Part shown: positions 30,760 to 49,114 of the stretch, in pieces
Position numbering within the stretch: the stretch's first letter is position 1
Layout of the letters: the number at the start of each line of letters is the position of its first letter
From: a virus
Length of the DNA: 64,000 nucleotides
IMG/VR virus record: IMGVR_UViG_3300042450_000503
Location: 2,479 to 66,478 of that record
Direction: 5' to 3' (one strand)
The notes under the pieces: model-generated
What the model was told of the DNA's origin: nothing
Seen by the model: only the letters and a program-made list of their open reading frames with translations
Databases searched by the model: none
Program-made: the position numbers and the translations under genes

Positions 30760-31220
30760 TAATTAAAAAAAAATATTGTAAAAAATTTTTTATCACAAAT
30801 ATATAAGTAAAGTGTTATATACCAATTTTGTTCGCAGGGACCCCCAACGGAAACGAACTTTGTTTGGCCCACCCCCCCAGTCGATTTCGACTTTCGGAAA
30901 AAGGATTTGCCTTTTCGGTCACGGCATGCGTGAGTTGATTGGCACTTATAGGCGGAAGGTTGAGGTGTTGCGCTGCGTGCGTTTGTTATGATGAGTGGCC
31001 GTGTGTTTGTTATGATGTGATGTGTTGGTGTATGATATGTTATACGATACGGCATGATACGATACGATACGTATGGCATGCCAGCTAACAGCGTTACCTC
31101 ATCGCGCTGCATCCGATCTGGTGTTGTGTGTTACTGTAATGCGTGTTACTGTAATGGTGGTTACCGATACGTGGAGCGGAGCGACACGCGGAGCGTGTAT
31201 AGCAACGCGTATAGCACTCC
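30760..31220. other. Non-coding divergence region with short tandem repeats (candidate terminus/origin)
   Basis: Switch of transcription direction; C-runs, GATAC repeats, TGTTTGTTATGATG x2, GTGTTACTGTAATG x2. Confidence 0.5.
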
Positions 31221-31221
31221 C

Positions 31222-31263
31222 TACAGTCCTGATACGACCTAGATATGATAATATATATGTAAC
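31222..31263 (+). promoter_or_regulatory. Early promoter-like motif P1 (TACAGTCYTRATACGA-N8-TGATAATATAAATGTAAC)
   Basis: TACAGTCCTGATACGA-CCTAGATA-TGATAATATATATGTAAC; 16 bp before ATG 31280. Confidence 0.8.
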
Positions 31264-31279
31264 AAGTAAACAATAAGAC

Positions 31280-31435
31280 ATGAATAGAATAGAAGAGTTA
31301 ATAGTACAAAAGTATCCATATCAATTGGAAGAGATCTTAACAAAAATAGAGGTTATGAAACAAGACTACGATCAAGACATGTTCTTGGAAGAAGACATCA
31401 TCGAATCAATACTAATAGAATTAAATATAATATAA
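31280..31435 (+). CDS. Small acidic early protein, paralogue A (51 aa)
   Basis: MNRIEELIVQKYPYQLEEILTKIEVMKQDYDQDMFLEEDIIESILIELNII. Confidence 0.75.
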   Translation: MNRIEELIVQKYPYQLEEILTKIEVMKQDYDQDMFLEEDIIESILIELNII

Positions 31436-31436
31436 C

Positions 31437-31601
31437 ATGAAGATAGAATTTACAAGAGAAGAGTTAAATGAGTTAGTGAACGGATTGTATTCATCAAGAG
31501 AGTTCGTACTCTCATATGAAGAGGAAAAACCAATCAACACATTAATCGATCGATTAGAAACAATCATTACAACAACCGAGTTATTAACAATAAACAAATA
31601 A
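31437..31601 (+). CDS. Small early protein (54 aa)
   Basis: MKIEFTREELNELVNGLY...; packed between neighbours. Confidence 0.6.
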   Translation: MKIEFTREELNELVNGLYSSREFVLSYEEEKPINTLIDRLETIITTTELLTINK

Positions 31602-31604
31602 GAT

Positions 31605-31766
31605 ATGAGAAAGTTTACACACGATGAGAAAGTAGTAATTATTAAACGTGTAATTGTCGGTTATCAAATCGTACTCACAAGTATGTTCGTTGTTGGATTT
31701 ACGAGAGTAGTGATCGGACTGATCATGGGTGAGTTCTCGAATGTGTCGTTCGGGATTTATAACTAA
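31605..31766 (+). CDS. Small early membrane protein (53 aa)
   Basis: MRKFTHDEKVVIIKRVIVGYQIVLTSMFVVGFTRVVIGLIMGEFSNVSFGIYN. Confidence 0.6.
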   Translation: MRKFTHDEKVVIIKRVIVGYQIVLTSMFVVGFTRVVIGLIMGEFSNVSFGIYN

Positions 31767-31837
31767 TACAAACCGGAGGTGTGAAAACACCGAAGGTGTA
31801 TAGCAAATGTATAGCATTTGCGTATAGCAAAAACCCT

Positions 31838-31878
31838 TACAGTCAGGACACGAGGTCAAAATGATAATATATATGAAT
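31838..31878 (+). promoter_or_regulatory. Early promoter-like motif P2
   Basis: TACAGTCAGGACACGA-N8-TGATAATATATATGAAT. Confidence 0.75.
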
Positions 31879-31912
31879 AAAGAAATTAATAATAATAAAT
31901 AAATCAAATAAA

Positions 31913-32089
31913 ATGACTTTAAAAATTAATCCTAACTTTAGATCTTTAATTAATTCTATATTAATTAATTCTAATAAATTAAATAATTCTTTTTATATAT
32001 TAAATAATAATTTAATAATAAATCCAAAAGATCTTGAAGAAGTTGATAAATTATTGACTAGAAATCTTTATAAATATAAAGTCTTATAA
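31913..32089 (+). CDS. Small Asn-rich early protein (58 aa)
   Basis: MTLKINPNFRSLINSILINSNK...; follows P2. Confidence 0.55.
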   Translation: MTLKINPNFRSLINSILINSNKLNNSFYILNNNLIINPKDLEEVDKLLTRNLYKYKVL

Positions 32090-32094
32090 TCCTC

Positions 32095-32136
32095 TACAGT
32101 CTTAATACGATCAAAGAATGATAATATAAATGTAAG
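32095..32136 (+). promoter_or_regulatory. Early promoter-like motif P3
   Basis: TACAGTCTTAATACGA-N8-TGATAATATAAATGTAAG. Confidence 0.8.
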
Positions 32137-32163
32137 TAAATAATAATAAATAAATAAAATAAC

Positions 32164-32319
32164 ATGACTAGAATAGAACAATTAATAGTAAATAAATATC
32201 CTAACCAACTTCAAGAAATAAAAGATCAAATAGAACTTTTAAAATTAGACTATGATGAAGAATTATTCTTAGAAGAAGATATAATAGAATCAATATTAAT
32301 AGAATTAAATATAATATAA
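32164..32319 (+). CDS. Small acidic early protein, paralogue B (51 aa)
   Basis: MTRIEQLIVNKYPNQLQEIKDQIELLKLDYDEELFLEEDIIESILIELNII. Confidence 0.75.
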   Translation: MTRIEQLIVNKYPNQLQEIKDQIELLKLDYDEELFLEEDIIESILIELNII

Positions 32320-32321
32320 CT

Positions 32322-32363
32322 TACAGTCTAGATACGACTAGTAATTGATAATATAAATGTAAC
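32322..32363 (+). promoter_or_regulatory. Early promoter-like motif P4
   Basis: TACAGTCTAGATACGA-N8-TGATAATATAAATGTAAC. Confidence 0.8.
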
Positions 32364-32395
32364 AAATAATAAATAACAAATTAAATAAAATAAAG

Positions 32396-32761
32396 ATGAA
32401 CAAATTTAAAAAAGAAGTAGTAGAAGTAGAAGTAGTAGTTGTAAAAACTAACAAAGAATTATTAACTGAAGCCATCAGTAAATTAAGTCCAGAAGACTTA
32501 GCCTTGATCTATCCTAAGATCGAACGAGCTAACTTTGTAGTAAGAAAATCTTGGCTAGGTAGAAATCAAGTAATAACTTTTGTTAACAACAAAAATCAAA
32601 AGATAACTTACAATCATGATGAAGTATTAAAAGTCATGTTGCCTAAACTATCTATAATGCCATGTTGGATCAAAAGACAATACTGGTCACAATCTACTGA
32701 TATGCCAAGTAATGTCAGACATCTGGCTACTGTTGAAGTTCTAGAATCTACTGAAAAGTAG
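32396..32761 (+). CDS. Hypothetical early protein
   Basis: 121 aa after P4. Confidence 0.75.
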   Translation: MNKFKKEVVEVEVVVVKTNKELLTEAISKLSPEDLALIYPKIERANFVVRKSWLGRNQVITFVNNKNQKITYNHDEVLKVMLPKLSIMPCWIKRQYWSQSTDMPSNVRHLATVEVLESTEK

Positions 32762-32770
32762 GTTTTAGAA
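32739..32770 (+). terminator. Hairpin at gene end
   Basis: TTCTAGAATCTACT-GAAA-AGTAGGTTTTAGAA. Confidence 0.45.
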
Positions 32771-32793
32771 TAAAACAAAAATGCTATACACTC

Positions 32794-32835
32794 TACGGTC
32801 GTGACACGATCAATCTATGATAATATAAATGTAAT
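32794..32835 (+). promoter_or_regulatory. Early promoter-like motif P5
   Basis: TACGGTCGTGACACGA-N8-TGATAATATAAATGTAAT. Confidence 0.75.
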
Positions 32836-32848
32836 TAAATAAACAACT

Positions 32849-33145
32849 ATGAAAAATCAAATTAAATCAATTGAAGACGTTAAAAACTTTGTACAATATC
32901 TAATAGACAATGATCAATTGTATCATTTCGAAGACGATCCGATTGATGTTATTAATATCAATGACGAAGCTGTGTTCACACCGTATGAATGTGACTTGTT
33001 AAATCAGCGAGTTGACGAAATATGTGAGCTAAACTTGCTAGAAAGTGCATTCGAGTTCGCACTTGAGCATTTAGCAGCTGAAGATGAGATGCATGTGCAA
33101 GCCTGGAGAGAGTCATTAACACAAGAACAATTAAATAGTATATAA
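32849..33145 (+). CDS. Acidic hypothetical early protein
   Basis: 98 aa; YHFEDDP motif. Confidence 0.7.
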   Translation: MKNQIKSIEDVKNFVQYLIDNDQLYHFEDDPIDVININDEAVFTPYECDLLNQRVDEICELNLLESAFEFALEHLAAEDEMHVQAWRESLTQEQLNSI

Positions 33146-33146
33146 T

Positions 33147-33383
33147 ATGAAAGATTTAGCCTTAATCGCGCTTGGAATAGCCGCTGGATTCGTAGCATCA
33201 GCATTGATAGCAAACAAACAAGAACAGATCAGAGTTGAAGAGCAGGGTAATATACCAGCATTCTATTGGAATGATCGAGTTAACCCACCTCACAGAGGTT
33301 TTGAACTAAAAGTTGATATGTATTGGAACGAAACTAAAGATACTATCTACATGGAATATTCATCTGGTCCTGAGGGCGAGTAA
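33147..33383 (+). CDS. Membrane-anchored early protein
   Basis: 78 aa; N-terminal TM segment. Confidence 0.65.
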   Translation: MKDLALIALGIAAGFVASALIANKQEQIRVEEQGNIPAFYWNDRVNPPHRGFELKVDMYWNETKDTIYMEYSSGPEGE

Positions 33384-33386
33384 AAT

Positions 33387-33434
33387 GTGCGACGTTAGCC
33401 TACTATTTATTAACTTAATCGGCTAATGTCACTC
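33387..33434. repeat. 48-bp inverted-repeat site, copy 2
   Basis: GTGCGACGTTAGCCTACTATTTATTAACTTAATCGGCTAATGTCACTC. Confidence 0.75.
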
Positions 33435-33476
33435 TTTTTCAACAGTTGCTTGCAACTACACCGAAGGTGTATAGCA

Positions 33477-33516
33477 TACAGGCCTAATACGGTCTCTTTT
33501 TGATAATAATTACGTA
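33477..33516 (+). promoter_or_regulatory. Early promoter-like motif P6 (variant)
   Basis: TACAGGCCTAATACGG-N8-TGATAATAATTACGTA; not followed by an ORF. Confidence 0.6.
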
Positions 33517-33646
33517 GCCTGGCTTTGAAATAGCGTCGGAAGAGTAGACTCCGTCCTACATTATAGCCAAATATACTCGAAAGTAAGGTTTGCCCTTGTT
33601 TTTTACTTGAGGGTAGCGATTACTTTTGATCTTTTTAGGTAAATCG
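33514..33646 (+). ncRNA. Candidate small structured RNA
   Basis: ORF-free stretch behind P6 with several short hairpins (TGGCT/AGCCA, TACT-CGAA-AGTA, CCCTTG/TGAGGG, CGATT/AATCG). Confidence 0.3.
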
Positions 33647-33672
33647 TGTATAGCATCCACCCAAAAAACTCT

Positions 33673-33714
33673 TACAAGATCAACACGAGACTAAATTGAT
33701 AATATATTTGAATC
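33673..33714 (+). promoter_or_regulatory. Early promoter-like motif P7
   Basis: TACAAGATCAACACGA-N8-TGATAATATATTTGAATC. Confidence 0.65.
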
Positions 33715-33729
33715 AAAACAATAATAATT

Positions 33730-33864
33730 ATGACTTTAGAATTAAATAATACCGAGGTTGCCCAATTAAAAGAGTTAATTTATGACTATATCGACCGCAT
33801 CGGTGGTTTCGATCAATTAAGTGATGAAATGAAAGAGGTTTTACAAGATTTAATAGATGGATAG
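33730..33864 (+). CDS. Small acidic early protein (44 aa)
   Basis: MTLELNNTEVAQLKELIYDYIDRIGGFDQLSDEMKEVLQDLIDG; follows P7. Confidence 0.6.
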   Translation: MTLELNNTEVAQLKELIYDYIDRIGGFDQLSDEMKEVLQDLIDG

Positions 33865-33923
33865 AGAAGTACTCTATAGCACCTGTATACTATTTAATTC
33901 AAGCAAATGAAGTATAACCTTTT

Positions 33924-33965
33924 TACAATCATAATACGATAGCGAAATGATAATATAAATGTAAC
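33924..33965 (+). promoter_or_regulatory. Early promoter-like motif P8
   Basis: TACAATCATAATACGA-N8-TGATAATATAAATGTAAC. Confidence 0.8.
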
Positions 33966-33981
33966 AAAAACAAATAAATAT

Positions 33982-34263
33982 ATGGAATATAAAGTAGTAG
34001 AAAGTAAGGAAATAGTATGGTGTGAGTACGATGATAGATATGTACTAATAATTAAGTCAAATGACGAGATAATTGGGTTAAACTTCATGCAAGGTGACGA
34101 ACTTGAGATGTTTAAAGAAGATTTCACTTATGTTGATGAGAAGTTAACTGACTTTTACAATGCGGTAAGTCCATACTTAGGCGGATTGAGTGAGCTTGAC
34201 CGTATTAATCAAGCGATATGGGCATTCCATAGTTATAGAGTATTAAGAGATGAAAGATATTAA
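33982..34263 (+). CDS. Hypothetical early protein
   Basis: 93 aa after P8. Confidence 0.7.
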   Translation: MEYKVVESKEIVWCEYDDRYVLIIKSNDEIIGLNFMQGDELEMFKEDFTYVDEKLTDFYNAVSPYLGGLSELDRINQAIWAFHSYRVLRDERY

Positions 34264-34282
34264 CAAATAAAAAATAGAAAAT

Positions 34283-34399
34283 ATGGAAGAGTACAGTGAT
34301 TGTTGTGGTGCGGGTAGACACCACATATATGATGAGTTATGCGGTGATTGTTTAGAACATTGCGAGTTTACCGATTGGGATGGTGAAGATGAAAATTAA
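34283..34399 (+). CDS. Small Cys-rich acidic peptide (38 aa)
   Basis: MEEYSDCCGAGRHHIYDELCGDCLEHCEFTDWDGEDEN; zinc-ribbon-like. Confidence 0.6.
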   Translation: MEEYSDCCGAGRHHIYDELCGDCLEHCEFTDWDGEDEN

Positions 34400-34415
34400 T
34401 ATTAAAAAGTAAATT

Positions 34416-34598
34416 ATGAAAACATATACAATACAAATTAACGAAAGTTATTCAAGAATAGTAACTATAGAATTGCCAGATGATAGCGATATTAACGACG
34501 CTATTGCCGAAGTGCGTAGCGATTATTATAATGAGCTAATAATATTAGATTATAGAGATTTTGATGATGCGGATTTTTATGAATTAGAAAATTATTAA
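34416..34598 (+). CDS. Small acidic protein (DpnD/PcfM-like pattern)
   Basis: 60 aa; YTIQINESYSRIVTIE...AIAEVRSDYYNELIILDYRDF. Confidence 0.55.
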   Translation: MKTYTIQINESYSRIVTIELPDDSDINDAIAEVRSDYYNELIILDYRDFDDADFYELENY

Positions 34599-34600
34599 GT

Positions 34601-34825
34601 ATGATAGGAGATAACCAAATTGTAGAGTATATTAATCCGTATTTTCCGGATAGACAAATGTACAAATGTAAGATTGAGGATTCAACATATCACACCGATG
34701 ACTATGGTAAATTAGTTGATTGGATTGTTGATAAGACTGTTAATGCAGAGTACTATGCGGAATGTAAGCAATTAAGCGACATAGCGTGCGCTAGCTTTAT
34801 GGCGGATGTAAAATATAAAGATTAA
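34601..34825 (+). CDS. Hypothetical early protein
   Basis: 74 aa. Confidence 0.6.
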   Translation: MIGDNQIVEYINPYFPDRQMYKCKIEDSTYHTDDYGKLVDWIVDKTVNAEYYAECKQLSDIACASFMADVKYKD

Positions 34826-34832
34826 TAATAGG

Positions 34833-34906
34833 AGTTAAGAGGAGTAATGGTAAACTCAGGCCGATCAGTGATGCCCGCAATGTAGGTTCGATTCCTACCT
34901 TAACTA
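34833..34906 (+). tRNA. tRNA-like gene with non-canonical anticodon arm
   Basis: Acceptor AGTTAAG/CTTAACT, D arm GAGT/ACTC, T arm GTAGG-TTCGATT-CCTAC; anticodon stem pairs only 3 of 5. Confidence 0.6.
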
Positions 34907-34916
34907 CAAATTCATT

Positions 34917-34958
34917 TACAGTCTTAATACGATTAATAAATGATAATATAAATGTAAC
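34917..34958 (+). promoter_or_regulatory. Early promoter-like motif P9
   Basis: TACAGTCTTAATACGA-N8-TGATAATATAAATGTAAC. Confidence 0.8.
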
Positions 34959-34974
34959 TAACAAATAATAATAT

Positions 34975-35154
34975 ATGAAAAATTCAATCAAGTTTTTAAA
35001 GTACAATTTCATTAAGCTCAACGGAGTGCTATACACACCCTACCTTGTCGGCGAACTACCGAACACGTTCGGATTTATAACTAATGACGAAGATCAAGAT
35101 GGTTATAGTGAGTGGTTTAATTTTAAAGGTTTAACTTATATAATCAAGAAATAG
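34975..35154 (+). CDS. Small early protein (59 aa)
   Basis: MKNSIKFLKYNFIKLNGVLYTPY...; follows P9. Confidence 0.65.
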   Translation: MKNSIKFLKYNFIKLNGVLYTPYLVGELPNTFGFITNDEDQDGYSEWFNFKGLTYIIKK

Positions 35155-35155
35155 T

Positions 35156-35344
35156 ATGATGTCATTCCCTAAATATAAACAAAACTTGCGAATGATCGGT
35201 GACGAAGTGTGGAGCTACTCTACTAATGTTGCAAGAAAAGAAGATGATAAACTAATACAATTAGGTTATTGGTCTGTAACTACCCAGAAACATATTAACT
35301 ATGTAGCCCGTGAATTAAATCTAACCTTAATAAAAACAGTATGA
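35156..35344 (+). CDS. Conserved small phage protein
   Basis: 62 aa; VWSYSTNVA...WSVTTQKHINY. Confidence 0.7.
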   Translation: MMSFPKYKQNLRMIGDEVWSYSTNVARKEDDKLIQLGYWSVTTQKHINYVARELNLTLIKTV

Positions 35345-35589
35345 TAGTAATAGCCAGTAATATGAAAGAAGCGTGTCAATTTCTTGAAGAAAAGAAAGCA
35401 CGTAATAGAGCCAACCGTATAAATGCGGTTAATACAGATGGATTGTGTAAAAGCTTCACTAGTGATGACTACAAAAAAGTTAAAACTACAATGAAGGGTG
35501 CAGCCAACCGTAAAGCCAAGACCTTTAGCGTAACTAGATACTGGAATCACAACAACCTAACATTAACAGAAATTAAAAATAAATATTAA
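35341..35589 (+). CDS. Basic hypothetical protein
   Basis: 82 aa, overlapping stop/start. Confidence 0.65.
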   Translation: MIVIASNMKEACQFLEEKKARNRANRINAVNTDGLCKSFTSDDYKKVKTTMKGAANRKAKTFSVTRYWNHNNLTLTEIKNKY

Positions 35590-35590
35590 T

Positions 35591-35878: not shown

Positions 35879-35891
35879 TAAAAATAAATAT

Positions 35892-36083
35892 ATGAAAAAG
35901 TTAAACGGATTTGAAAGTTATTTAGTTCTTGAGGGCTTAGCGTCTATGAGAAGAACAATGAAAATGGATATATTAGAAATTCAAGCTGACGGTAAAAACC
36001 CTATTATGACTACAGGTTATGTAGATATGGTTATCGACGAAACAATTGAAAAGATTAAAACATTAACCTTAAAACAAAAGTAA
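35892..36083 (+). CDS. Hypothetical protein
   Basis: 63 aa. Confidence 0.65.
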   Translation: MKKLNGFESYLVLEGLASMRRTMKMDILEIQADGKNPIMTTGYVDMVIDETIEKIKTLTLKQK

Positions 36084-36298
36084 TGAAAGAGCAGTATATT
36101 AAGATGCGTAACAGTAACCAACTAGATATTGGTTTGCTATACACCTATGCTCGAGAGCAGGGCTTAACTATGCCGATCGATCAGTTTGCGGCGGGCCTGC
36201 AATTTATGGCTAGTGACGTGATAGAGTATTTAGATCATAAACTTGAGTTAACTTTATTATTTAGTAAAGACGGTAAATTTATAAAAGTAGTAGAATAA
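36083..36298 (+). CDS. Hypothetical protein
   Basis: 71 aa, TAATG coupling. Confidence 0.65.
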   Translation: MKEQYIKMRNSNQLDIGLLYTYAREQGLTMPIDQFAAGLQFMASDVIEYLDHKLELTLLFSKDGKFIKVVE

Positions 36299-37124: not shown

Positions 37125-37308
37125 GTTAGCCGTGCTTGAAGGAGTACTAGAAACCCAAAATAAATTACGCATTGACTTTAAAATTAGAGAATCTGATTTA
37201 ACTGTTCATCAAGTAATAAGACTTGAGCAGATCACGGATTTGCTATACACGCTGTTTTGCCAAGTTGTTGAAGAGCGCGGTGTCTTACAGTCCGAATACG
37301 AACAATAA
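37087..37308 (+). CDS. Hypothetical protein
   Basis: 73 aa. Confidence 0.6.
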   Translation: MKTLNQKELDLVRLAVLEGVLETQNKLRIDFKIRESDLTVHQVIRLEQITDLLYTLFCQVVEERGVLQSEYEQ

Positions 37309-38341: not shown

Positions 38342-38344
38342 TTG

Positions 38345-39080
38345 CTATACACGGTTGTCCTGCTGATCCGATCGGTAAGGTAGCGTAGAGGCCGTGTTAT
38401 TTACAATTGTCTCACATGAGTGGTATAGAGGTTGTAACGCAGGAAACAGTGCGTAATGCTGAATGCGGGATTGGGGTGACCCCGGTCGCGACTCAGGGAG
38501 CAGTGAGTTCGTTAAATAAGAACTGTTCAAAATGTTAATCACTCGGGGTTGTGTGAAGTTATACCAGGCTTAGCTAGCTGGTTGCAACCGAAATATGGGA
38601 TAAAGAAAATAACCGGTCCTCGGATTAACAAAGAACTAAGTGCTGGGCTAAATGGATCTGTTTCAGTCTCCGGGCATTGTCACGGCCGACGGGTTAAGGG
38701 GTTCGATTCCCCTTTTAGTTCCTAATAGCTAAGCTGTGTAAAGCACCAGATCTGATAAACTGTGTGAAGCTATAGGTTAAACATTGAATACCTTATCACG
38801 GCGGGAATCTATTGAGGAACGGGTGATAAAAGATACTATCAGTAATGGTAGATGTGTTGTTCCCTTGAGAAAGGAATACAGGTGGGTAGATGAAATAAGC
38901 TATCAGAACTGCAGATAAAGATGCGGACTGCACAACACAAATGAGTTCTCAGCAAGTAGTTAAAGAACCGTTGTATTACACCTTAATTGGTAGTAATCAA
39001 CAAACGTCATATTAACTACGCGACCCTAATCATTAAGTGAGCAGCGAGGGCTAACTTGCAAGGCTATAATGATGGGTGCT
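38345..39080 (+). ncRNA. Large structured non-coding RNA candidate with embedded tRNA-like domain
   Basis: ~740 nt without a credible ORF, GC-richer than flanks, more than 10 helices, GNRA loops, T-loop GTTCGATTC. Confidence 0.65.
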
Positions 39081-39273: not shown

Positions 39274-39855
39274 ATGAAAGAATTAACAACTAAACAATTA
39301 GCGGAAGTAAATAAAAATTTAGATAATTACTTCTCATTAGCAACCGACAAAGATATTGATAACGGTATTGCGTGGTATAAGCAAGCACATTATATATGTA
39401 AAGATCTTGCTGAGCGGTATAATACTAAGCTAGAAACTGTTGCAAGTATCATTAGTGCATTGTCACCACGTAATCGTTGGCCACAAAATATCAAAGATAC
39501 CAAAACGGTACTTGATGCTATACACGCTGGCCTCGAGCCTGATCAAGTTAAAGTGTGTACGTTCAACCGAAACAAAGAAAAAGCTTTCTTATTGGGTAAA
39601 GAACAAACGTCTATTACTGATAAAAGTTTAAAAACATTCAGTTTTGTTAACAATATTGCAAAATTAGATAATAATTATATTACAGTTGATGTGTGGCATT
39701 TGCGTGCTTGTTTTGGTAAAACTATAACAACTAATCCAAGCAGAAAAGCCTATGATCAAATAAGATTATTAACAATCGAAAAAGCTAAACAACGAGGCTT
39801 AAACGGTTACGAGTACCAAGCTATAGTGTGGAACGCAGTAAAAAACAATTTTTAA
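39274..39855 (+). CDS. Phage protein with HhH-glycosylase-like pattern (DUF7178-like)
   Basis: 193 aa; WY, ISALSPRNRW, KTFSF, ITVDVWHLRA, QAIVW. Confidence 0.6.
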   Translation: MKELTTKQLAEVNKNLDNYFSLATDKDIDNGIAWYKQAHYICKDLAERYNTKLETVASIISALSPRNRWPQNIKDTKTVLDAIHAGLEPDQVKVCTFNRNKEKAFLLGKEQTSITDKSLKTFSFVNNIAKLDNNYITVDVWHLRACFGKTITTNPSRKAYDQIRLLTIEKAKQRGLNGYEYQAIVWNAVKNNF

Positions 39856-40490: not shown

Positions 40491-40733
40491 ATGAAAGCAA
40501 CAATTAAATTTAAGTTACCAGAAGATAACATGGAATTTGCTATACACAATATGGCTCAAGACATGGCCGGTTTACTATGGGAATTAACTCATAATGTAAA
40601 GAAAAAATGCGAGTGGGCAGCCGATCAAGTTGATCCTATCAATGCTAATATCTATGACGGAATAGATATAGTGTTTGAAAAAATAACAGAATTATTAAAT
40701 GATTATAATATTGACTCAGATAAATTAGGATAA
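40491..40733 (+). CDS. Hypothetical protein
   Basis: 80 aa; MKATIKFKLPED. Confidence 0.7.
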   Translation: MKATIKFKLPEDNMEFAIHNMAQDMAGLLWELTHNVKKKCEWAADQVDPINANIYDGIDIVFEKITELLNDYNIDSDKLG

Positions 40734-40933: not shown

Positions 40934-41607
40934 AAATATGGCATATATCAGATACTCATACGTATCACGACTTATTAACTATACCTAAAGGTATTGATAT
41001 GGTAATACATTCTGGCGATTGTAGTAATCCTAGAGATCCATATAACAATGAACCTGAAGTTAAAGAGTTTATTCATTGGTACAAATCATTACCTATTGAG
41101 CATAAGATTTATGTAGCAGGTAATCATGATACCTCTATTGAAAAAGGCTTAGTTAAAAAAATAGATTTTTCTGGGTACAACATACATTACTTAGAGAATG
41201 ACTATATAGATATTGACGGCATTAAAATATTTGGGTCACCCCATACGCCCCAGTTTGGCCAATGGGCATTTATGAAAGATCGCAATAAACTAGATCGATT
41301 CTGGCGCAATGCTATACACGAACCTTGCGACATTATTGTTACGCACGGGCCGCCTAAAGGCATTTTAGACAAGTCTTTTGATCGTCTTAATAATATGGAA
41401 CCCTGTGGAGATAAGTCTTTATTAAATGTAGTATTAGAGATGCAACCTGCATATCATTTGTTTGGTCACATACACAACTGCAAAGATATTATTAATGCGG
41501 GAATGTTAAAACTAAGCGCATACGACACGTGGTTTAGTAATGGATCAGTAGTAACTGATGGCAAATTTGGAAAATTAACTAGTAATGGTAATATATTTGA
41601 AATATGA
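40930..41607 (+). CDS. Calcineurin-like metallophosphoesterase
   Basis: 225 aa; SDTH, HSGD, AGNHD, THGPP, FGHIH. Confidence 0.9.
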   Translation: MKIWHISDTHTYHDLLTIPKGIDMVIHSGDCSNPRDPYNNEPEVKEFIHWYKSLPIEHKIYVAGNHDTSIEKGLVKKIDFSGYNIHYLENDYIDIDGIKIFGSPHTPQFGQWAFMKDRNKLDRFWRNAIHEPCDIIVTHGPPKGILDKSFDRLNNMEPCGDKSLLNVVLEMQPAYHLFGHIHNCKDIINAGMLKLSAYDTWFSNGSVVTDGKFGKLTSNGNIFEI

Positions 41608-42577: not shown

Positions 42578-43190
42578 TGATAGAAATTTAGAATACTTAA
42601 ACAAAAAAAGAGTGATATACAGACGTGGCCCTATTAATGATAAACCAACACAACAATATGAGTGGGGTTCTTTTTATGAATCAGGTACTACTGAATGTTA
42701 TGAATTGTTTAGAAGTAAAGCAAAGATACCTACATACAAGTCTCTTAAATGGCATTTATATGTACTTTGGTATCTGAATCCTTCTTTAGATCAAAATGAA
42801 TTTGAATCTATAGTTAGGCATGTATGTAATAAAAAAAACGGCTTTATAACATTTAATGTTAGTGAGCAATTATTACAGAGCATGATGTATGATGTGTCTT
42901 TAAAAGACCTTGATGAACCTCCTTATAATAAAACTCGCAAGATTATATTTAAGGATAACAGTGGATTAACATTAAATGAAAAGTTATCCATTGTAGGACA
43001 AATGATTGGTAAAACTAAAAAAGTTACCGAGTCTGATATTTACGATGCAATGCTATACACCCATGATCTAAATATAAAAATTACAATTAAAAAATTAGCT
43101 GATCACTTTGGTTGCTCAAGCAGAACCATACATCGCAATATGGGTAATGAACTTAAAAAAGAAAAAGAATTATTAAATCAATCATTATGA
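42570..43190 (+). CDS. Protein with C-terminal HTH (regulator or replication initiator)
   Basis: 206 aa; ITIKKLADHFGCSSRTIHRNM. Confidence 0.7.
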   Translation: MSYDRNLEYLNKKRVIYRRGPINDKPTQQYEWGSFYESGTTECYELFRSKAKIPTYKSLKWHLYVLWYLNPSLDQNEFESIVRHVCNKKNGFITFNVSEQLLQSMMYDVSLKDLDEPPYNKTRKIIFKDNSGLTLNEKLSIVGQMIGKTKKVTESDIYDAMLYTHDLNIKITIKKLADHFGCSSRTIHRNMGNELKKEKELLNQSL

Positions 43191-43530: not shown

Positions 43531-43531
43531 T

Positions 43532-44299: not shown

Positions 44300-44345
44300 G
44301 TTAAACTAAAAAATGTTAGCTAAAATAGACTAAATAGTTAACATA

Positions 44346-44360
44346 ATACGTAATTATATA
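44346..44360 (+). promoter_or_regulatory. Second-class promoter candidate ATACGTAATTATATA
   Basis: Same core as motifs upstream of late genes; precedes ERF. Confidence 0.45.
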
Positions 44361-44392
44361 AATAAGAATACTAACTAAATAAATTAAATTAT

Positions 44393-44974
44393 ATGGCAAC
44401 AAAAAAAGAAGAAAATGTACAAGAAACTCTAGAGAGAGATTTCACGCTTAACGAAAAGTTAGCAATAATACAAACAGAGTTTAAATCTAAAAAGTCTAGA
44501 TTCAATTCGTTTGGTAAGTATAACTTTAGATCGGCTGAAGATATTCTTGAAGCAACGAAACCGTTTTTATTACGACTTGGTGTAACAGTTACGGTCATAG
44601 AAGAACTTGTAACATCAAATCAAGGCTTCCCCATCTTAAAGTCTATTGCAACAATTTCCGATGGAGATGGTGCTTTACATGCAGTAGCAATCGTTGGGGT
44701 TGATCTTGATCAGAAAGGTATGCAAATGCCTCAGAAGTTTGGATCAGCATCAAGTTACGGTAAGAAATATGCATTAGGTAATCTATTCTTAATTGATGAT
44801 ACTCAAGATGCAGATCATGGTAAAGCGGAACCCGTTGCTAAAGCAAAGCTTGACGTAAGCGATGCGGCTTTTGAAAAAGCTTCACAGTTTATTAAAACAG
44901 GTGGCAAGATAGAAACTATTAAAGCAAAGTATGATTTGACTAAAGAAGCAGAGCTAATTCTATATAATCTTTAA
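44393..44974 (+). CDS. ERF family single-strand annealing protein
   Basis: 193 aa; NSFGKYNFRSAEDI, QKFGSASSYGKKYALGNLF. Confidence 0.9.
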   Translation: MATKKEENVQETLERDFTLNEKLAIIQTEFKSKKSRFNSFGKYNFRSAEDILEATKPFLLRLGVTVTVIEELVTSNQGFPILKSIATISDGDGALHAVAIVGVDLDQKGMQMPQKFGSASSYGKKYALGNLFLIDDTQDADHGKAEPVAKAKLDVSDAAFEKASQFIKTGGKIETIKAKYDLTKEAELILYNL

Positions 44975-44975
44975 T

Positions 44976-45710
44976 ATGACTAAAGAAGAAATAATAGAAA
45001 AATTAAAAAATGACGAGCATTATTATGGTGAGTTTGGAAAAAACTTTTTAAGTAATTCAAATATATCTGCATTACTTACAAACCCATTATTAATGAATGC
45101 TCCTCAAGATCCTAATCCCAATTTTGTTATTGGCGGTTACTTTCATACGGCTATATTAGAGCCTGACAAATTGCATAAGTACAAAATTATAGAAGCCACT
45201 ACTAGAAATACTAATAAGTATAAAGAATTATCTGAAGGCGAAATTTGTTTACTACAGCATGAAGCAGATCGAATAGAGTTAATGAAAGATACAATGCTAG
45301 CGAACGAAGTTTGTAATGGATTAATACGGGGTTTCAATGTTGAATATGAAACTCCAGGCATTGTTGAATTATTTGGCACAATGTGGAAAGGCAAAGCTGA
45401 TATTATAAATCATGACGAAGGTTTAATTATAGACCTTAAAACAACATCAGACTTAAGTTCATTTCCATATTCTGCAAAAAAATATAACTATGATAGTCAA
45501 GCTTACATTTATAAGAAGCTATTTGATTATGATATGATATTTATGGCAATCGATAAAACAACACATCAAATCGGTATATTTGATTGTTCAGATAACTTTC
45601 TAGCAAATGGTGAAGATAAAGTTAGGAAAGCAGTTGAAGCATACGATTTATTTTTTAAAACTGAGGACTTTGATCCCAAACAATTTTTAATAACAAAAAC
45701 CCTTAACTAA
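44976..45710 (+). CDS. PD-(D/E)XK exonuclease (RecE/DUF3799-like)
   Basis: 244 aa; GGYFHTAILEP, KGKADI, IDLKTT, YDSQAYIY. Confidence 0.85.
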   Translation: MTKEEIIEKLKNDEHYYGEFGKNFLSNSNISALLTNPLLMNAPQDPNPNFVIGGYFHTAILEPDKLHKYKIIEATTRNTNKYKELSEGEICLLQHEADRIELMKDTMLANEVCNGLIRGFNVEYETPGIVELFGTMWKGKADIINHDEGLIIDLKTTSDLSSFPYSAKKYNYDSQAYIYKKLFDYDMIFMAIDKTTHQIGIFDCSDNFLANGEDKVRKAVEAYDLFFKTEDFDPKQFLITKTLN

Positions 45711-45727
45711 AAACAAAAACGAGAATT

Positions 45728-46042
45728 ATGGCAAGTATTATTAAAGCAAGTATTAACTTAAATGAAATTCCAAAGAACAAGATTATAGAAGGCAAGAAAG
45801 GTAAGTATCTTCCTATAACTATAACAATTAATGACGAAGTAGATCAATTTGGTAACCAAGGACCTGTAATGGTCGAGCAGTCTAAAGAAGAACGTGAATC
45901 TAAAGCAACTAAAATTTACCTTGGAAATGTTAAAGTGGTATGGACGAATGGCGACAACGTTGCTGTTGCACCCAGAACTGATGGTCAATCTGCTCCGGCA
46001 CAAAGAGCGCCAGCAGCGGTAGAAGATGATCTACCTTTTTAA
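45728..46042 (+). CDS. Putative single-stranded DNA-binding protein
   Basis: 104 aa; acidic tail EDDLPF; replication context. Confidence 0.7.
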   Translation: MASIIKASINLNEIPKNKIIEGKKGKYLPITITINDEVDQFGNQGPVMVEQSKEERESKATKIYLGNVKVVWTNGDNVAVAPRTDGQSAPAQRAPAAVEDDLPF

Positions 46043-46044
46043 AG

Positions 46045-46182
46045 TATAAAGCAGGATGAAGTCTGGACAGCTTTATAACAAGTGGCGTTAGGAGGCACCA
46101 CTGCAGAGGTTACAAATAAGAATCTCCTTTTATATAGTGTGGTTGCAACCTTTCGAGCCCAACTGCCCTATAGCACACTGTA
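46045..46182 (+). ncRNA. Candidate structured RNA between SSB and primase-helicase
   Basis: Four consecutive hairpins in ORF-free DNA. Confidence 0.35.
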
Positions 46183-46189
46183 GTTAGTT

Positions 46190-46212
46190 AAACCCCATTA
46201 ATTGGGGTTTTT
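46190..46212 (+). terminator. Rho-independent terminator
   Basis: AAACCCCA-TTAAT-TGGGGTTT followed by TT. Confidence 0.7.
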
Positions 46213-46236
46213 CTATCTACAAAAAGTAATGAGCCT

Positions 46237-46278
46237 TACAGTCTTAATACGATTGTATATTGATAATATATATGTAAC
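46237..46278 (+). promoter_or_regulatory. Early promoter-like motif P14
   Basis: TACAGTCTTAATACGA-N8-TGATAATATATATGTAAC; 16 bp before primase ATG. Confidence 0.8.
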
Positions 46279-46294
46279 AAATTAAATTTAATAG

Positions 46295-48001
46295 ATGCAA
46301 ACAACAGAGATAAATGGTTTTTTGATTGACCAATTCAATCAACACAAGCTTGAAGAGGGTAAGTCACAAGGTATTTGTCCATTGTGTTCGCCTGATAGAA
46401 AGCCAAAGAATGAAAAAGCAAAGTGTGCATCTTATGATTGGGATCGCGGTATAGGCACGTGTCATAACTGTAATAAAACTTTTCAACTACATACATATGA
46501 ACGTAAAGGCAAAAGTGAAAAAGTATATGTTAAACCCGACGTTGCTATACACGTTCCGCCAAGTTCAAAAGTTGTTGAATGGTTTGCAACACGTGGTATT
46601 TCAGAACAAACATTAAATGATCTTAAGGTAACTGAAGGCCAAGAATTCATGCCTCAAACCGCTAAACAAGAAAATGTAATCAATTTCAATTATTATGTTG
46701 GCGATCAACTTACAAACGTAAAATATAGAGACGGCCGTAAAAACTTTAAATTATATAAAGGAGCTGAAAAAGTATTCTATAATATTAATAGCATTGTAGG
46801 GTTTGAATATTGTGTTATTGTTGAAGGTGAGATGGACGTATTAGCACTGCACGAAGCAGGTATTACAAATGCAATATCAGTTCCAAACGGAGCTACATTA
46901 GGCACAAACAATCTTGAGTACTTAGATAATTGTATTGATTATTTTGAAGACAAAGATAAAATTATTATTGCAGTTGATTCAGACGTTGCAGGGCAAGCCT
47001 TACAAGCTGAACTAGTCAGACGGCTAGGATCAGAAACTTGTTATATTGCAACTTTCGATGATTGTAAAGACGCTAACGAATACTTAATTAAATATGGAAA
47101 AGAAGCACTATCACAAAGAATTTCAAGATCAAAACCCGTACCGCTTGAAAATGTTACAACTTTTAAAGACATTGAAGACGAGGTTACCGATTTTGTCAGA
47201 AACGGATTTAAACCTGGATTCCAAGTCGGACTGGATAACTTCGACAGTATTTTTTCTACGTATACTGGTCAGTTCATTACTGTTACCGGCATTCCTAGCT
47301 CTGGCAAGTCTGATTTTGTTGATCAAATGGTTGTTGGTTATAATGAAAAGTATGGTTGGAAGACTGCGTATGCTTCTCCTGAAAATCATCCAACGTATCT
47401 ACATGCCCACAAGTTAATGCGTAAAACATGGCAAGGTATGCCTAGAGTTGATGATATTAAAACAGAAAAGTGGAATCAAGTTGCAGATCACGTTAATGAT
47501 AATTATTTCTTTATTGACATGGAACGTTATACATTAGAATCTGTATTAAGAAAAGGGGCTGAGCTAGTTAAACGTAAAGGAATTAAATGCTTAGTTATTG
47601 ATCCATTTAACAAAGTAAGATCTGCTGATCCATCTGGCGATGTTAATGTTTATACATTAGAGTATTTAAGTCAGATTGAAATCTTTGCTAAAAAATACGA
47701 TGTGCTAGTAATGATTGTAGCCCACCCTACTAAAATGTACAAAGATTCAAAAGGTAATATTGAAGAACCTACAATGTACAATATTAAAGGTGGCGGCGAA
47801 TGGTATGATGCATCCTATCACGGATTATTAGTTCACAGGAACTATGAAGATAAAACTGTTAAAGTTAAAGTGCTTAAATGTAAGTTTCAAAACCTCGGCG
47901 AGAATGGCGCTGAATGTCATTTTAAGTGGGAACCTAACTCAGGATGTTTCCTTCCGCATATACCAGCAGTAGGATCTGATGATAAAATGCCCTGGGAATA
48001 A
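46295..48001 (+). CDS. T7 gp4/Twinkle-like primase-helicase
   Basis: 568 aa; Zn ribbon CPLC..CHNC, TOPRIM VEGEMD / DSDVAG / KDANE, Walker A GIPSSGKS, Walker B LVIDP. Confidence 0.95.
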   Translation: MQTTEINGFLIDQFNQHKLEEGKSQGICPLCSPDRKPKNEKAKCASYDWDRGIGTCHNCNKTFQLHTYERKGKSEKVYVKPDVAIHVPPSSKVVEWFATRGISEQTLNDLKVTEGQEFMPQTAKQENVINFNYYVGDQLTNVKYRDGRKNFKLYKGAEKVFYNINSIVGFEYCVIVEGEMDVLALHEAGITNAISVPNGATLGTNNLEYLDNCIDYFEDKDKIIIAVDSDVAGQALQAELVRRLGSETCYIATFDDCKDANEYLIKYGKEALSQRISRSKPVPLENVTTFKDIEDEVTDFVRNGFKPGFQVGLDNFDSIFSTYTGQFITVTGIPSSGKSDFVDQMVVGYNEKYGWKTAYASPENHPTYLHAHKLMRKTWQGMPRVDDIKTEKWNQVADHVNDNYFFIDMERYTLESVLRKGAELVKRKGIKCLVIDPFNKVRSADPSGDVNVYTLEYLSQIEIFAKKYDVLVMIVAHPTKMYKDSKGNIEEPTMYNIKGGGEWYDASYHGLLVHRNYEDKTVKVKVLKCKFQNLGENGAECHFKWEPNSGCFLPHIPAVGSDDKMPWE

Positions 48002-48342
48002 TGGGTAGTGGATCTAAAAGCAAAGGTACTATAGACATGGGTAATTATACGCCTAACATTAAAGAGCAAGAGGCTTATACATGGTGCATAAGAAACAATA
48101 TATATATATCACCTAAAGCAAAGAGCACAACAGAATGGTACCTTACTATTACTATTAATGGTAAAGAGTCACAAAGCCCGCCATTTTATAAAAAGATTGA
48201 TATATGGAAACAACTATATAAATTCTATGTTTATTATTATGATAAATATGCAAATAAGATAGAAGTTAAAACCGTAGAAGATCCAAAAAGTAAGTTAAAG
48301 AAAGAAGTAGGAAAACCAAATAACAATTTAAAATTATTCTAA
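48001..48342 (+). CDS. Hypothetical protein
   Basis: 113 aa; WCIRNNIYISP. Confidence 0.65.
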   Translation: MGSGSKSKGTIDMGNYTPNIKEQEAYTWCIRNNIYISPKAKSTTEWYLTITINGKESQSPPFYKKIDIWKQLYKFYVYYYDKYANKIEVKTVEDPKSKLKKEVGKPNNNLKLF

Positions 48343-48343
48343 T

Positions 48344-49114
48344 ATGATAACAAAGTATGAATCCCAATACAAAGCTTTATTATGGAAATGCTTAACCCGT
48401 AGTGTACATAGAAACGACCGCACTGGCGTTGGGTCTAGATCTATATTCAATGCTAGTCTAAGGATTGATCTTAAAGATAGTTTCCCTTTATTAACTGGTA
48501 GAAAAATGTTTCAAAAAACTTTTGATACAGAATTTGAATGGCTTATGAATGGCGAAACTAATATACAAAGATTTAGAGATGCTGGCGTAAAGATATGGGA
48601 TGCTTGGGCTGATGATAATGGAGATCTTGGGCCTGTGTATGGGCATCAAATGCGCAATTTTAACGATCAAAATATAGATCAGATGCAAATGCTTATTAAA
48701 AATTTAATTGCTGATCCAGACAGCCGTAGACACATTATAAGTTTATGGAATCCTGCACAATTAAAAGATATGAAATTGCCTCCATGCTATTTATACTTTC
48801 AGTTTTTTGTTGATGGCAAAGATCTTAATATGTTTGTTGTGCAAAGATCAGGCGATATGTTCTTAGGTATACCTTATGATGTTGCTTTATTCTCCAAAGT
48901 ACTTTTATATGTAGCTGATAAAGTAGGGCTGCAAGCTAATTATATAGATCTACAAATTGTAGATGCTCACATTTATGAGAATCAAGTTGAGGCTATACAC
49001 AAATACTTTGAAGAAAAGAGCTTTGACGCTCCAAAGTACATTTATGAAAACGGCTTATTAACCTTAATAAATTACAAGCATGGCCCGGTAATTTCAGCAA
49101 AAGTGGCTATTTAA
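48344..49114 (+). CDS. thyA: Thymidylate synthase
   Basis: DRTGVG, DLGPVYGHQMR, LPPC, QRSGDMFLGIPY, DAHIYENQ. Confidence 0.95.
   Translation: MITKYESQYKALLWKCLTRSVHRNDRTGVGSRSIFNASLRIDLKDSFPLLTGRKMFQKTFDTEFEWLMNGETNIQRFRDAGVKIWDAWADDNGDLGPVYGHQMRNFNDQNIDQMQMLIKNLIADPDSRRHIISLWNPAQLKDMKLPPCYLYFQFFVDGKDLNMFVVQRSGDMFLGIPYDVALFSKVLLYVADKVGLQANYIDLQIVDAHIYENQVEAIHKYFEEKSFDAPKYIYENGLLTLINYKHGPVISAKVAI

Follow-up and report, generated by a model that had tools for sequence, protein, structure and literature searches.

The window analysed here is a 64,000-nt stretch of the 66,478-nt virus record IMGVR_UViG_3300042450_000503, the two ends of which overlap. The phage from which it derives is uncultured and came from a lake. 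A G+C-rich, repeat-laden non-coding stretch lies between a leftward late operon (with a tRNA-Met gene) and the first early promoter; read directly, it contains GATAC repeats and a 12-mer that occurs twice, and it could be an origin or a genome-end region. In the relative G003 a comparable GT/GC-rich stretch lies ahead of the corresponding array of motif copies, whereas the motif-negative relative G006 has no such stretch. From this boundary onwards the early region carries repeated copies of a ten-letter word, TGCTATACAC, before promoters, between genes and within them (Table 1).

Table 1. Copies of the word and associated features in the window
Feature	Position	Strand	Remarks
Exact copy in portal gene	13329..13338	-	On portal coding strand, opposite to early copies
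G+C-rich, repeat-laden non-coding stretch	30740..31194	.	Adjoins first motif array
Hairpin ACACGC-GGA-GCGTGT	31184..31198	+	3' arm runs into copy at 31195
Exact copy, first of 2-copy tandem array	31195..31204	-	12-nt step
Variant copy TGCTATACGC, second of tandem pair	31207..31216	-	Array ends 5 nt before TACAGTC element of early promoter 1
Hairpin ACACC-GAA-GGTGT	31787..31799	+	Fused to copy at 31796
Exact copy, first of 3-copy tandem array	31796..31805	-	Steps 11 and 13 nt; upstream of early promoter 2
Variant copy TGCTATACAT within 3-copy array	31807..31816	-	
Variant copy TGCTATACGC	31820..31829	-	Ends 8 nt before TTACAGTC of promoter 2
Exact copy, intergenic	32782..32791	+	2 nt before upstream element of promoter at 32819
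Hairpin TACACC-GAA-GGTGTA (33457-33471, + strand reading) fused to exact copy (33467-33476)	33457..33476	-	Beside degenerate promoter copy
Exact copy, intergenic	33646..33655	-	17 nt before upstream element of promoter at 33698
Exact copy in ORF 34975-35154 (LYT)	35027..35036	+	Kept in 4/4 close relatives, flanks 76-86% identical
Exact copy in ORF 36083-36298 (LYT)	36135..36144	+	Kept in the 2 relatives aligning there
Exact copy in ORF 37087-37308 (LYT)	37241..37250	+	35 nt before promoter element at 37285; 2 relatives keep it, a third has a one-base variant
Exact copy, intergenic	38343..38352	+	Directly after stop of KTSC-domain ORF; 5' edge of ~900-nt ORF-free stretch
Exact copy in DUF7178 gene 39274-39855 (AIH)	39516..39525	+	
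Exact copy in ORF 40491-40733 (AIH)	40538..40547	+	
Exact copy in metallophosphoesterase gene 40930-41607 (AIH)	41310..41319	+	
Exact copy in HTH-protein gene 42570-43190 (LYT)	43051..43060	+	Kept in 10/18, lost in 8/18 aligned relatives
Exact copy in primase-helicase gene (AIH)	46543..46552	+	Single primase copy of other lineages lies at three other alignment columns
Variant TGCTATACGC, antisense in ribonucleotide reductase gene	51669..51678	-	Chance match possible
Variant TGCTATACGC in 2903-aa gene, coding strand	60814..60823	-	Membership uncertain

The word has 15 exact copies in the window, 10 on the + strand and 5 on the - strand, against an expectation of 0.14 and a largest value of 1 in 100 dinucleotide-preserving shuffles of the window. 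The entire record holds these same 15 copies and no more, and the word written backwards, used as a control, has 0 copies there. The first-pass annotation, made from the letters alone, had placed all 15 at the right coordinates and strands, with about 0.1 copies expected, and its list of exact copies is complete. A search of the window allowing one mismatch returned 22 matches (4.21 expected); these take in the variants already named in that annotation (31207, 31807, 31820, 48991 and 60814) as well as two that it had missed, at 38736 and 51669 on the - strand. Comparisons give the consensus TGCTATAC[A/G][C/T], and near-cognate sites are depleted, single-base variants at positions 1-8 numbering 5 in five motif-positive genomes versus 30 in six negative ones.

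The word is oriented, independent of reading frame and kept by selection at the level of nucleic acid. The 51 + strand ORFs (19,689 nt) hold 8 forward and 0 reverse copies, whereas 1000 synonymous codon shuffles of the early ORFs yielded 0.44 copies on average and never more than 3. The selection at DNA level proposed in the first-pass annotation is therefore supported, as selection on nucleic acid, by this shuffling, by conserved copies in relatives and by the shifting position of the word in the primase gene; the two frames (LYT and AIH) were also assigned to the right copies, and those at 32782 and 38343 do lie outside genes.

Among 16 whole related virus records examined, the word is present in 10 and absent from 6, and motif-positive and motif-negative groups are interleaved on protein trees. 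Orthologous copies are perfect while their flanks are only 72-85% identical, and across 41 aligned sites in relatives the conserved footprint is exactly the 10-mer (flanks 37-88% identical). The word has been gained repeatedly. In the primase gene it stands at four different alignment columns across lineages, where conserved residues have been replaced through changes such as ENTIQF to ENAIHF, and exactly one copy is found in this gene in 8 of the 10 positive genomes. No substitute word was found in the six negative genomes. No phage gene tracks the word, the best being an 84-aa ORF found in 8 of the 10 positive and 1 of the 6 negative genomes.

By our tally, copies outside the boundary arrays are strongly strand-biased, with 79 on the main strand of their genome and 6 exact copies plus 2 variants on the other. 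In the window, the coding strand carries all 8 intragenic early copies as well as the portal copy, and the 120 copies of the ten genomes comprise 71 sense, 16 antisense and 33 intergenic ones. Late-arm copies in G011-G015 stay on the main strand though antisense to the late genes, those of G014 and G015 including copies inside terminase; in each of G000, G001, G003 and G004, one late copy is on the opposite strand. The inverted arrays at the boundary recur in G001-G004, G011 and G014 (2-7 inverted copies each). G012 and G013 have 6-7 dispersed copies and no boundary array: G013 has 6 forward copies and no complementary one, and G012 has 6 forward copies with one isolated, intragenic complementary copy that has neither hairpin nor array.

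Of the 12 early promoters, 5 have copies of the word at most 45 nt upstream, 8 copies in all. The inverted copies had been described as lying just upstream of early promoters, which applies to 31195/31207, 31796/31807/31820 and 33646; the copy at 33467 sits beside a degenerate promoter copy, and the adjacency extends to the + copies at 32782 and 37241. Stems that involve the word are not enriched (mean 4.50 versus 4.54 in shuffles).

The gaps between copies were correctly given in the earlier account, and the interval of about 1.1 kb noted there is real in this phage, three successive gaps within 6 nt of one another arising in 1e-4 of 20,000 random placements (overall gap CV, P = 0.046). At the same or corresponding sites in relatives, however, the gaps are 809/777 nt or 1.6-3.8 kb, so the 1.1-kb lattice is not conserved. 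Among relatives the spacing ranges from 0.2 to 9 kb, and copy density drops sharply outside the early/middle arm.

Our best reading, to which we give a probability of roughly 35%, is that the copies could be sites of strand-specific recognition or nicking, comparable to those in Pseudomonas phage tf, T5 and the phiKMV-like phages. We infer that a phage protein reads the word on DNA and that a nick results. The consensus would be a cis-acting DNA signal, recognized on one strand during infection by a sequence-specific protein that is probably phage-encoded and fast-evolving. Late in infection a site-specific nickase would cut the motif-bearing strand, and packaged genomes would then have single-strand interruptions at fixed places, one per 1-3 kb of the early/middle arm, to be sealed after entry. 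The inverted tandem arrays and hairpins at the first early promoters could serve as high-occupancy sites for the same protein, which may nick the other strand there or may merely bind and modulate those promoters.

This reading is supported by the enrichment of the word before and after codon shuffling, by the 10-mer footprint conserved in relatives, by the scarcity of single-base variants, as in tf, by a density that is held while position moves, as in the primase gene, by the main-strand bias and late-arm strand locking, as in tf, and by occurrence at chance level in 401 sampled Bacteroidia genomes, as expected if it is not a host word. As in tf, the sites are concentrated in the early arm and common to relatives. 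Counting against it, both strands are used, unlike in tf, through the inverted boundary arrays and the late copies of G000, G001, G003 and G004, and 8 copies near promoters resemble operators. Pfam and PHROG scans of most called ORFs returned only endonuclease I/DUF1064, PDDEXK, Pyr_excise, ERF, a weak HTH and a sigma factor, and revealed no candidate nuclease or nickase whose presence follows that of the word. Contigs from 4 of the 24 public runs found show no molecule ends at the sites.

Several other functions could account for parts of this pattern. First, and possible though doubtful, the word could be the binding site of a phage regulator of early transcription, with the phased arrays acting as operators or activator sites and the intragenic copies as polar roadblocks or as pause or reservoir sites for that protein. 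The tandem copies 11-13 nt apart that end 5-8 nt before the upstream element of promoters 1 and 2, the single copies 2, 17 and 35 nt before three more promoters, the recurrence of the same arrays in relatives and the depletion of near-cognate sites would all fit such a role, and the phasing and promoter adjacency are observed, although no binding protein was found. However, G012 and G013 keep their dispersed copies without any boundary array, the intragenic copies are strand-biased and kept at the cost of conserved residues, neither of which simple operators need, and no DNA-binding gene tracks the word.

Second, a polar signal for replication, packaging or ejection is unlikely; on this view an origin or end region would have the boundary arrays as its iterons, and the dispersed copies would be oriented translocation signals (for a primosome or terminase) or Ter-like barriers in two opposed groups. 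Two opposed orientation groups do diverge from a boundary that adjoins the repeat-rich stretch, late copies in G011-G015 are locked to one strand, density is maintained as position moves, and arrays with hairpins may resemble origin architecture. Against it, copies thin out sharply beyond the early/middle arm, spacing varies widely among relatives, and six close relatives manage replication and packaging with no copy of the word. The turn in cumulative GC skew coincides with the turn in transcription and therefore gives no independent evidence of an origin.

Third, and quite unlikely, the word could be a phage-specific promoter element, an extended -10-like TGnTATAC used for middle transcripts by a redirected host RNA polymerase or the phage sigma factor (43532-44299). 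Its intragenic copies are co-oriented with their own gene in 71 of 87 cases in the ten genomes, the copies inverted at the boundary face the leftward late operon, the ~25 nt after the word are G+C-rich (GC 0.42-0.63 versus 0.34 for the genome), and the copy at 38343 directly precedes the stretch of highest RNA-contig depth. Yet 16 of 120 copies, 9 of them late-arm copies in G011-G015, would drive antisense transcription, the next ORF start is 95-1449 nt away with no preferred value, and no conserved upstream element was found. All 16 genomes have the sigma gene, among them the 6 that have neither the word nor a substitute. RNA contigs run across 37241, 38343, 39516 and 46543, a weak objection because contigs do not reveal transcript ends.

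An action in RNA is improbable, whether as a sense-strand processing signal or through pairing with the GUGUAUAGCA copies located after hairpins in the 3' untranslated regions of the first early transcripts. It would agree with the coding-strand position of the intragenic early and portal copies in the window and with the inverted copies, which come after ORF stops and hairpins and would be transcribed by rightward read-through; the ORF adjoining the 38343 copy encodes a KTSC domain, a proposed RNA-binding domain. G013 has no complementary copy with which to pair and G012 only its isolated one, the late genes of G011-G015 carry their copies in antisense, and stems with the word are at shuffled levels.

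Finally, a host-read word, that is, a Chi-, KOPS- or uptake-like sequence of the host chromosome copied by the phage to protect or move its DNA, is hardly credible even though the word is oriented, frame-independent and dispersed, tracks no phage gene and switches between presence and absence in sister phages, which could reflect different hosts: the 401 Bacteroidia genomes have 0-18 copies per strand (maximum 32 in 3.2 Mb), and the word is at chance level, too, in a metagenome bin that includes a related phage contig (5 copies in 4 Mb, not counting that contig). The host-read Chi- or KOPS-like option of the first-pass annotation, which had proposed searching candidate host genomes for the skewed motif, is thus not supported, for want of enrichment in these genomes. 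A mild excess there is compositional, since it extends to each of the four RY variants, even to GT, of which the phages make no use. Hundreds of strand-skewed copies in a host chromosome were not found in the genomes searched, outside which the true host may lie; the tally includes the unpublished G114 and G200 (2 copies each), and nothing rests on them.

Among known systems, iteron and operator arrays consist of direct repeats one helical turn apart beside promoters and hairpins. The repeats of 11-13 nt next to promoters and hairpins are like these, but most copies of the word are solitary, intragenic and strand-biased. T7 class II/III and T4 late promoters likewise use an exact short word, co-oriented with genes and often inside the preceding gene; unlike them, this word has no fixed distance to gene starts, has antisense copies in late genes of relatives, and its cognate factor does not co-vary with it. 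T5 and the phiKMV-like phages have fixed nicks in one strand at a consensus sequence, with no function assigned, but with fewer sites per genome (4-5 major) and other consensus sequences; T5 nick sites are not known to be concentrated in the early arm.

The T5-type nick had been one option of the first-pass annotation, and it is the nearest known analogue. The parts of the tf account on which we draw (PMC3517423) describe localized single-strand interruptions in tf and LUZ24-like phages with the consensus 5'-TACT/RTGMC-3', and for tf report 14 verified nicks at a 9-mer on one strand only, with early-arm gaps of 0.7-2.6 kb and rare near-cognate variants, and do not identify the nicking enzyme. 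In the tf record (NC_017971), 14 of 14 sites are on the top strand, none is inverted and 11 of 14 lie in the left half. The two systems differ in that, here, hairpin-linked inverted tandem arrays stand ahead of the first promoters and a few late copies are on the other strand, and in their proteins, which are unrelated (no homology to tf was found); nicks are proven in tf and proposed here. The claim that the system is undescribed stands for this phage group as far as the searches went, although signals of this kind have been seen before. Both phages have a short asymmetric word of 9-10 nt that is far over-represented and rarely accompanied by near-cognate variants, and in both its sites are closely set in the early arm and sparser elsewhere, fall in any frame inside genes and occupy positions common to relatives.

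Our results define the oriented 10-mer of this phage (consensus TGCTATAC[A/G][C/T]) as a selected, density-maintained DNA word with an array on the promoter side, and the finding is real and extends beyond the curiosity of a single genome. All 15 exact copies reported in the first-pass annotation were recovered where it had placed them, against an expectation of 0.14. With one mismatch allowed, the matches numbered 22 (4.21 expected), including the variants listed by that annotation as well as two that it had overlooked, at 38736 and 51669 on the minus strand. The word is the most over-represented 10-mer of the genome among those containing G+C, and its enrichment survived codon shuffling: when synonymous codons were permuted within each ORF in 1000 trials, the 51 rightward ORFs were expected to hold a mean of 0.44 copies (maximum 3), whereas 8 forward and 0 reverse copies were observed. 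The tripeptides LYT and AIH, which the word encodes in its two reading frames, each occur five times in these ORFs, and in either case four of the five are encoded by the word. The spacing of 1.1 kb claimed earlier was confirmed for the window, in which the successive gaps of 1108, 1106 and 1102 nt have a chance probability of 1e-4, but not for relatives, with gaps of 809 and 777 nt at the orthologous sites in G001 and G004 and of 1.6-3.8 kb in more distant carriers of the word. Because these gaps differ, we take the exact period to be a property of this genome only.

The five close carriers (G000-G004, whole records) contain 59 exact copies and, in addition, 16 variants with G at position 9 and 9 with T at position 10. 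Other single changes are rare, and the consensus is therefore degenerate at these two positions only. The five distant carriers (G011-G015) have 6-11 copies each, compared with 0-1 of a backwards control word. One of these, the 93-kb record G014, matches the primase twice, once on each strand. Its assembly is probably chimeric or concatenated, and its counts need care. A single viral-contig scan returned 215 stretches encoding a relative of the primase, and at least one exact copy is present in 49 of the 80 primase loci kept from it for analysis. No exact copy was found in six complete relatives (the non-carriers G005-G010), nor in the first 50 kb of Elemovirus elemoA_7-9A and of MW202828. Single changes at positions 1-8 occur 5 times in the five carriers and 30 times in the six non-carriers, so genomes that use the word seem to avoid near-misses. 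Orthologous copies are intact even though their flanks are only 72-85% identical, and across 41 aligned relative sites the conserved block is the 10-mer alone, with neighbouring positions 37-88% identical. A wider footprint was considered for 91 sites (de-duplicated from 119 in ten genomes) and dropped, as no flank consensus was found among them beyond a scarcity of C before the word (3% at -1, 7% at -2) and a G+C-rich patch in the 20 nt after it (42-63%, versus 34% for the genomes).

The strongest single result of the analysis is the pattern in the primase gene, which has exactly one copy in eight of the ten carriers, at four different alignment columns (see table). At column 139, the sequence ENTI(Q/K)F is conserved in 11 genomes and is replaced by ENAIHF in the two that bear the word there. 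The four columns and the residue change indicate that the word arose repeatedly and at the protein's cost; its presence within the region is kept, and its position is not. In carriers, selection has been so strong that conserved residues of the primase were rewritten on four separate occasions. For annotators, it is a warning that the DNA, and not protein function, dictates the LYT and AIH tripeptides that recur in these proteins.

Positions of features associated with the word and its surroundings (window coordinates, or columns of the primase alignment)
Feature	Position	Strand	Remarks
Non-coding stretch	30740-31194		about 450 nt, G+C-rich, repeat-rich
Tandem pair	31195/31207		ends 5 nt before upstream element of promoter-like motif
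Triple array	31796-31829		ends 8 nt before next copy of promoter-like motif
Promoter-like motif	31222-46278	+	12 clear copies and one degenerate (near 33487)
tRNA	34833-34906		called by Rfam (39.9 bits), not reported by ARAGORN
ORF-poor stretch	38343-39250		~900 nt, no convincing ORF
tRNA-like acceptor/T-arm module	38633-38721		inside ORF-poor stretch
Primase copy	column 82		G000, G001, G004
Primase copy	column 96		G014
Primase copy	column 139		G002, G003
Primase copy	column 286		G012, G013

The window corresponds to bases 2479-66478 of an IMG/VR virus record of 66,478 nt, and the first 200 nt of this record are repeated at its end with one mismatch. Leftward genes, including those for the portal, large terminase, GroEL and tail proteins, fill window positions 1-31112. 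The rightward genes (31280-53763) begin with about 30 small ORFs, followed by genes for an HTH protein, a sigma-like factor, ERF, a PDDEXK nuclease, a primase-helicase, ThyA, a MazG-like protein, an endonuclease I/DUF1064 protein and ribonucleotide reductase; to the right of this block, a gene for a 2903-aa protein is leftward again. The terminase shares 45% identity with its counterpart in the cultured Flavobacterium podophages (genus Elemovirus) and 63% with that of the uncultured record MW202828, and gene order is the same as in both. The early region of the latter has a recurrent element of a different kind from the word, a 14-nt palindrome, TGTCGTTAACGACA, present in eleven copies (locus L251, MW202828.1, 43744-49879). 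A DNA polymerase gene was not found in Pfam/PHROG scans of the larger ORFs of the window; a primase-helicase, an ERF protein, a nuclease and a resolvase-like gene were all found. The 2903-aa protein and another of 1858 aa had no Pfam match, and the former had no tblastn match among 50,697 phage records. Host inference through the phage GroEL was dropped, as its matches were Bacteroidota chaperonins only about 40% identical and phage-like contigs assigned to a Sphingobacteriales bin and an Aliivibrio bin.

Among the explanations for the word, strand-specific recognition or nick sites of the kind found in phages tf and T5 rank first, and we would give this reading roughly one chance in three. 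The layout of the copies is common to G000-G004, G011 and G014. At the left edge of the early region, 2-7 copies lie in the opposite orientation, often in tandem at steps of 11-13 nt and using the G9 and T10 variants. Main-orientation copies run rightward of this boundary through the early and middle genes, as far as the primase gene and a few kb more; G012 and G013 have the dispersed copies and lack the boundary array. Hairpins of 5-6 bp with GGA or GAA loops are fused to three boundary copies of the window and are confined to such copies. A general hairpin at the word was rejected, the longest stems averaging 4.50 nt versus 4.54 in shuffles. The arrays of the window end just before promoter-like motifs (see table). 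The second-ranked explanation, that the copies are sites for a regulator, can be held only tentatively.

A polar replication or packaging signal ranks third and appears rather unlikely. Left of the boundary copies, the non-coding stretch separates the late operon from the first early promoter and contains GATAC runs, a 12-mer present twice, and C and G runs. The stretch is a candidate origin, or else the place where the physical ends lie; a comparable G+C-rich stretch is present in G003 and absent in the non-carrier G006. That the word is itself a promoter element, the fourth-ranked explanation, is doubtful. The promoter-like motif of the early region spans ~42 nt (TTACAGTC-N3-ATACGA-N8-TGATAATATAAATGTAAC), and all its copies, located between 31247 and 46262 in the motif search, precede early ORFs. 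Single copies of the word lie 2, 17 and 35 nt before three further copies of the motif, apart from the two next to the arrays. This motif is common to G001-G004 and to G006, which is without the word, and we take it to be unlike the Bacteroidota housekeeping promoter.

The relation of the word to transcription was also considered. Of 120 copies in ten genomes, 71 lie on the coding strand of their own ORF, 33 are intergenic and 16 are antisense, by mechanically called ORFs with some spurious boundary calls. All intragenic early copies of the window, and its portal copy, are on the coding strand. In G011-G015, late-arm copies occupy the same DNA strand as the early copies and are therefore antisense to the late genes, as seen within the terminase homologue of G014 and G015. 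Outside the boundary arrays, 79 copies are on the main strand of their genome versus 6 exact copies and 2 variants on the other. Neither a coding-strand nor a DNA-strand rule is absolute, but a signal that merely follows transcription is disfavoured by the late-arm copies in the distant carriers. An RNA-level signal ranks fifth and is improbable. The window sequence occurs in contigs of 24 public runs, and RNA contigs from four metatranscriptome runs cover the region and bridge the copies at 37241, 38343, 39516 and 46543, although contigs cannot show ends, strand or nicks and gaps in their cover carry no meaning.

In all four metatranscriptome runs used, the summed RNA-contig depth was highest at the ORF-poor stretch (bins 37975-39242). 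No Rfam family was found at E below 1 in 38300-39260.

A signal read by the host, which would take in the Chi- or KOPS-like option of the first-pass annotation if the host is the reader, ranks last and is very improbable, as nothing points to the host in 401 sampled Bacteroidia genomes (0-18 copies per strand) or in the bin holding a related phage contig (5 copies in the remaining 4 Mb). The few Bacteroidia genomes with 18-32 copies have an equal fourfold excess of each of the four RY variants, of which one, GT, is not used by the phages. The bacterial chromosome G288 has 12 one-strand copies, which come from a gene repeated in tandem every 963 nt and have no relation to the phage word; seven lie in G288:C1:38598-45347, six consecutive ones exactly 963 nt apart.

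Within the phages, comparison of 98 ORFs of this genome with 16 whole records gave no perfect presence/absence match for a reader gene. The best-tracking ORF (37752-38006, 84 aa) is present in 8 of 10 carriers and 1 of 6 non-carriers and resembles viral hypothetical proteins only, and a KTSC-domain ORF adjoining the copy at 38343 is present in 6 of 10 and 0 of 6, respectively. Pfam scans of about 60 ORFs yielded no sequence-specific nuclease or obvious DNA-binding candidate beyond the HTH protein, sigma-like factor, ERF, PDDEXK nuclease and endonuclease I/DUF1064 protein already counted. Possible resemblances of the word to the DnaA box, the T4 MotA box, relaxase oriT layouts and N4 hairpin promoters serve as leads only. 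Carriers and non-carriers are interleaved on the primase and terminase trees, the carrier G011 being sister to the non-carrier G009 (support 100/100 and 98/97) and, on the primase tree, the carrier G015 to the non-carrier G007; the word has therefore been gained or lost between close relatives. No substitute word was found in non-carriers. The candidate in G005, 12 oriented copies of a GC-rich 11-mer, encodes a repeated GNVGIGT-type peptide in the sense direction of a tail-fibre-like gene (loci L093/L094), an example of repetitive coding sequence that can pass for an oriented DNA signal. A 16-mer in G006 is its early promoter, and the leading words of G009 and G010 are dispersed and enriched only slightly.

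A more speculative proposal, which we consider unlikely, is an undescribed phage 'genome punctuation' system in which one small, fast-evolving reader protein has two jobs. First, it would mark one strand of the first-expressed arm, keeping the density of marks constant, the marks being nicks or one-way barriers to forks or polymerases. Second, it would use the inverted tandem copies with their fused GNA-loop hairpins to control the first early promoters or else a neighbouring origin or end. Sister phages would gain or lose such a system as one unit and, once present, it would force new sites to arise, even within conserved enzymes.

The phage family, which is large and environmentally common, is a natural experiment, as its sister genomes are with or without the word; given the strong selection, the reader of the word and the reason for its density can be tested by comparison and recoding.

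The closest analogue considered for strand-specific recognition or nicking is the Pseudomonas phage tf. According to the published account of its nicks, 14 were shown experimentally at 5'-TACT/RTGMC-3', all 14 in the top strand and 11 in the left half, at positions common to LUZ24, PaP3 and MR299-2 (PMC3517423). Near-cognate sites are described there as few and the enzyme and purpose as unknown, and what the fixed nicks are for is likewise still called unknown in T5, phiKMV-like and tf-like phages (PMC3517423). In the annotated tf record, its word occurs 14 times forward and 0 times in reverse, with early-arm gaps of 721-2575 nt. The literature searched yielded no description of the window phage's word or of nicks in its group. 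The statistical portraits of the two phages are alike, although nicks are proven in tf and the evidence here is a sequence pattern. They also differ in that tf is strictly one-stranded and has no inverted arrays, whereas the window phage has such arrays and is not strictly one-stranded, and the two have no detectable protein in common. If the sites are nicks, the phenomenon reaches beyond Pseudomonas and enterobacterial phages to Bacteroidota-type lake podophages.
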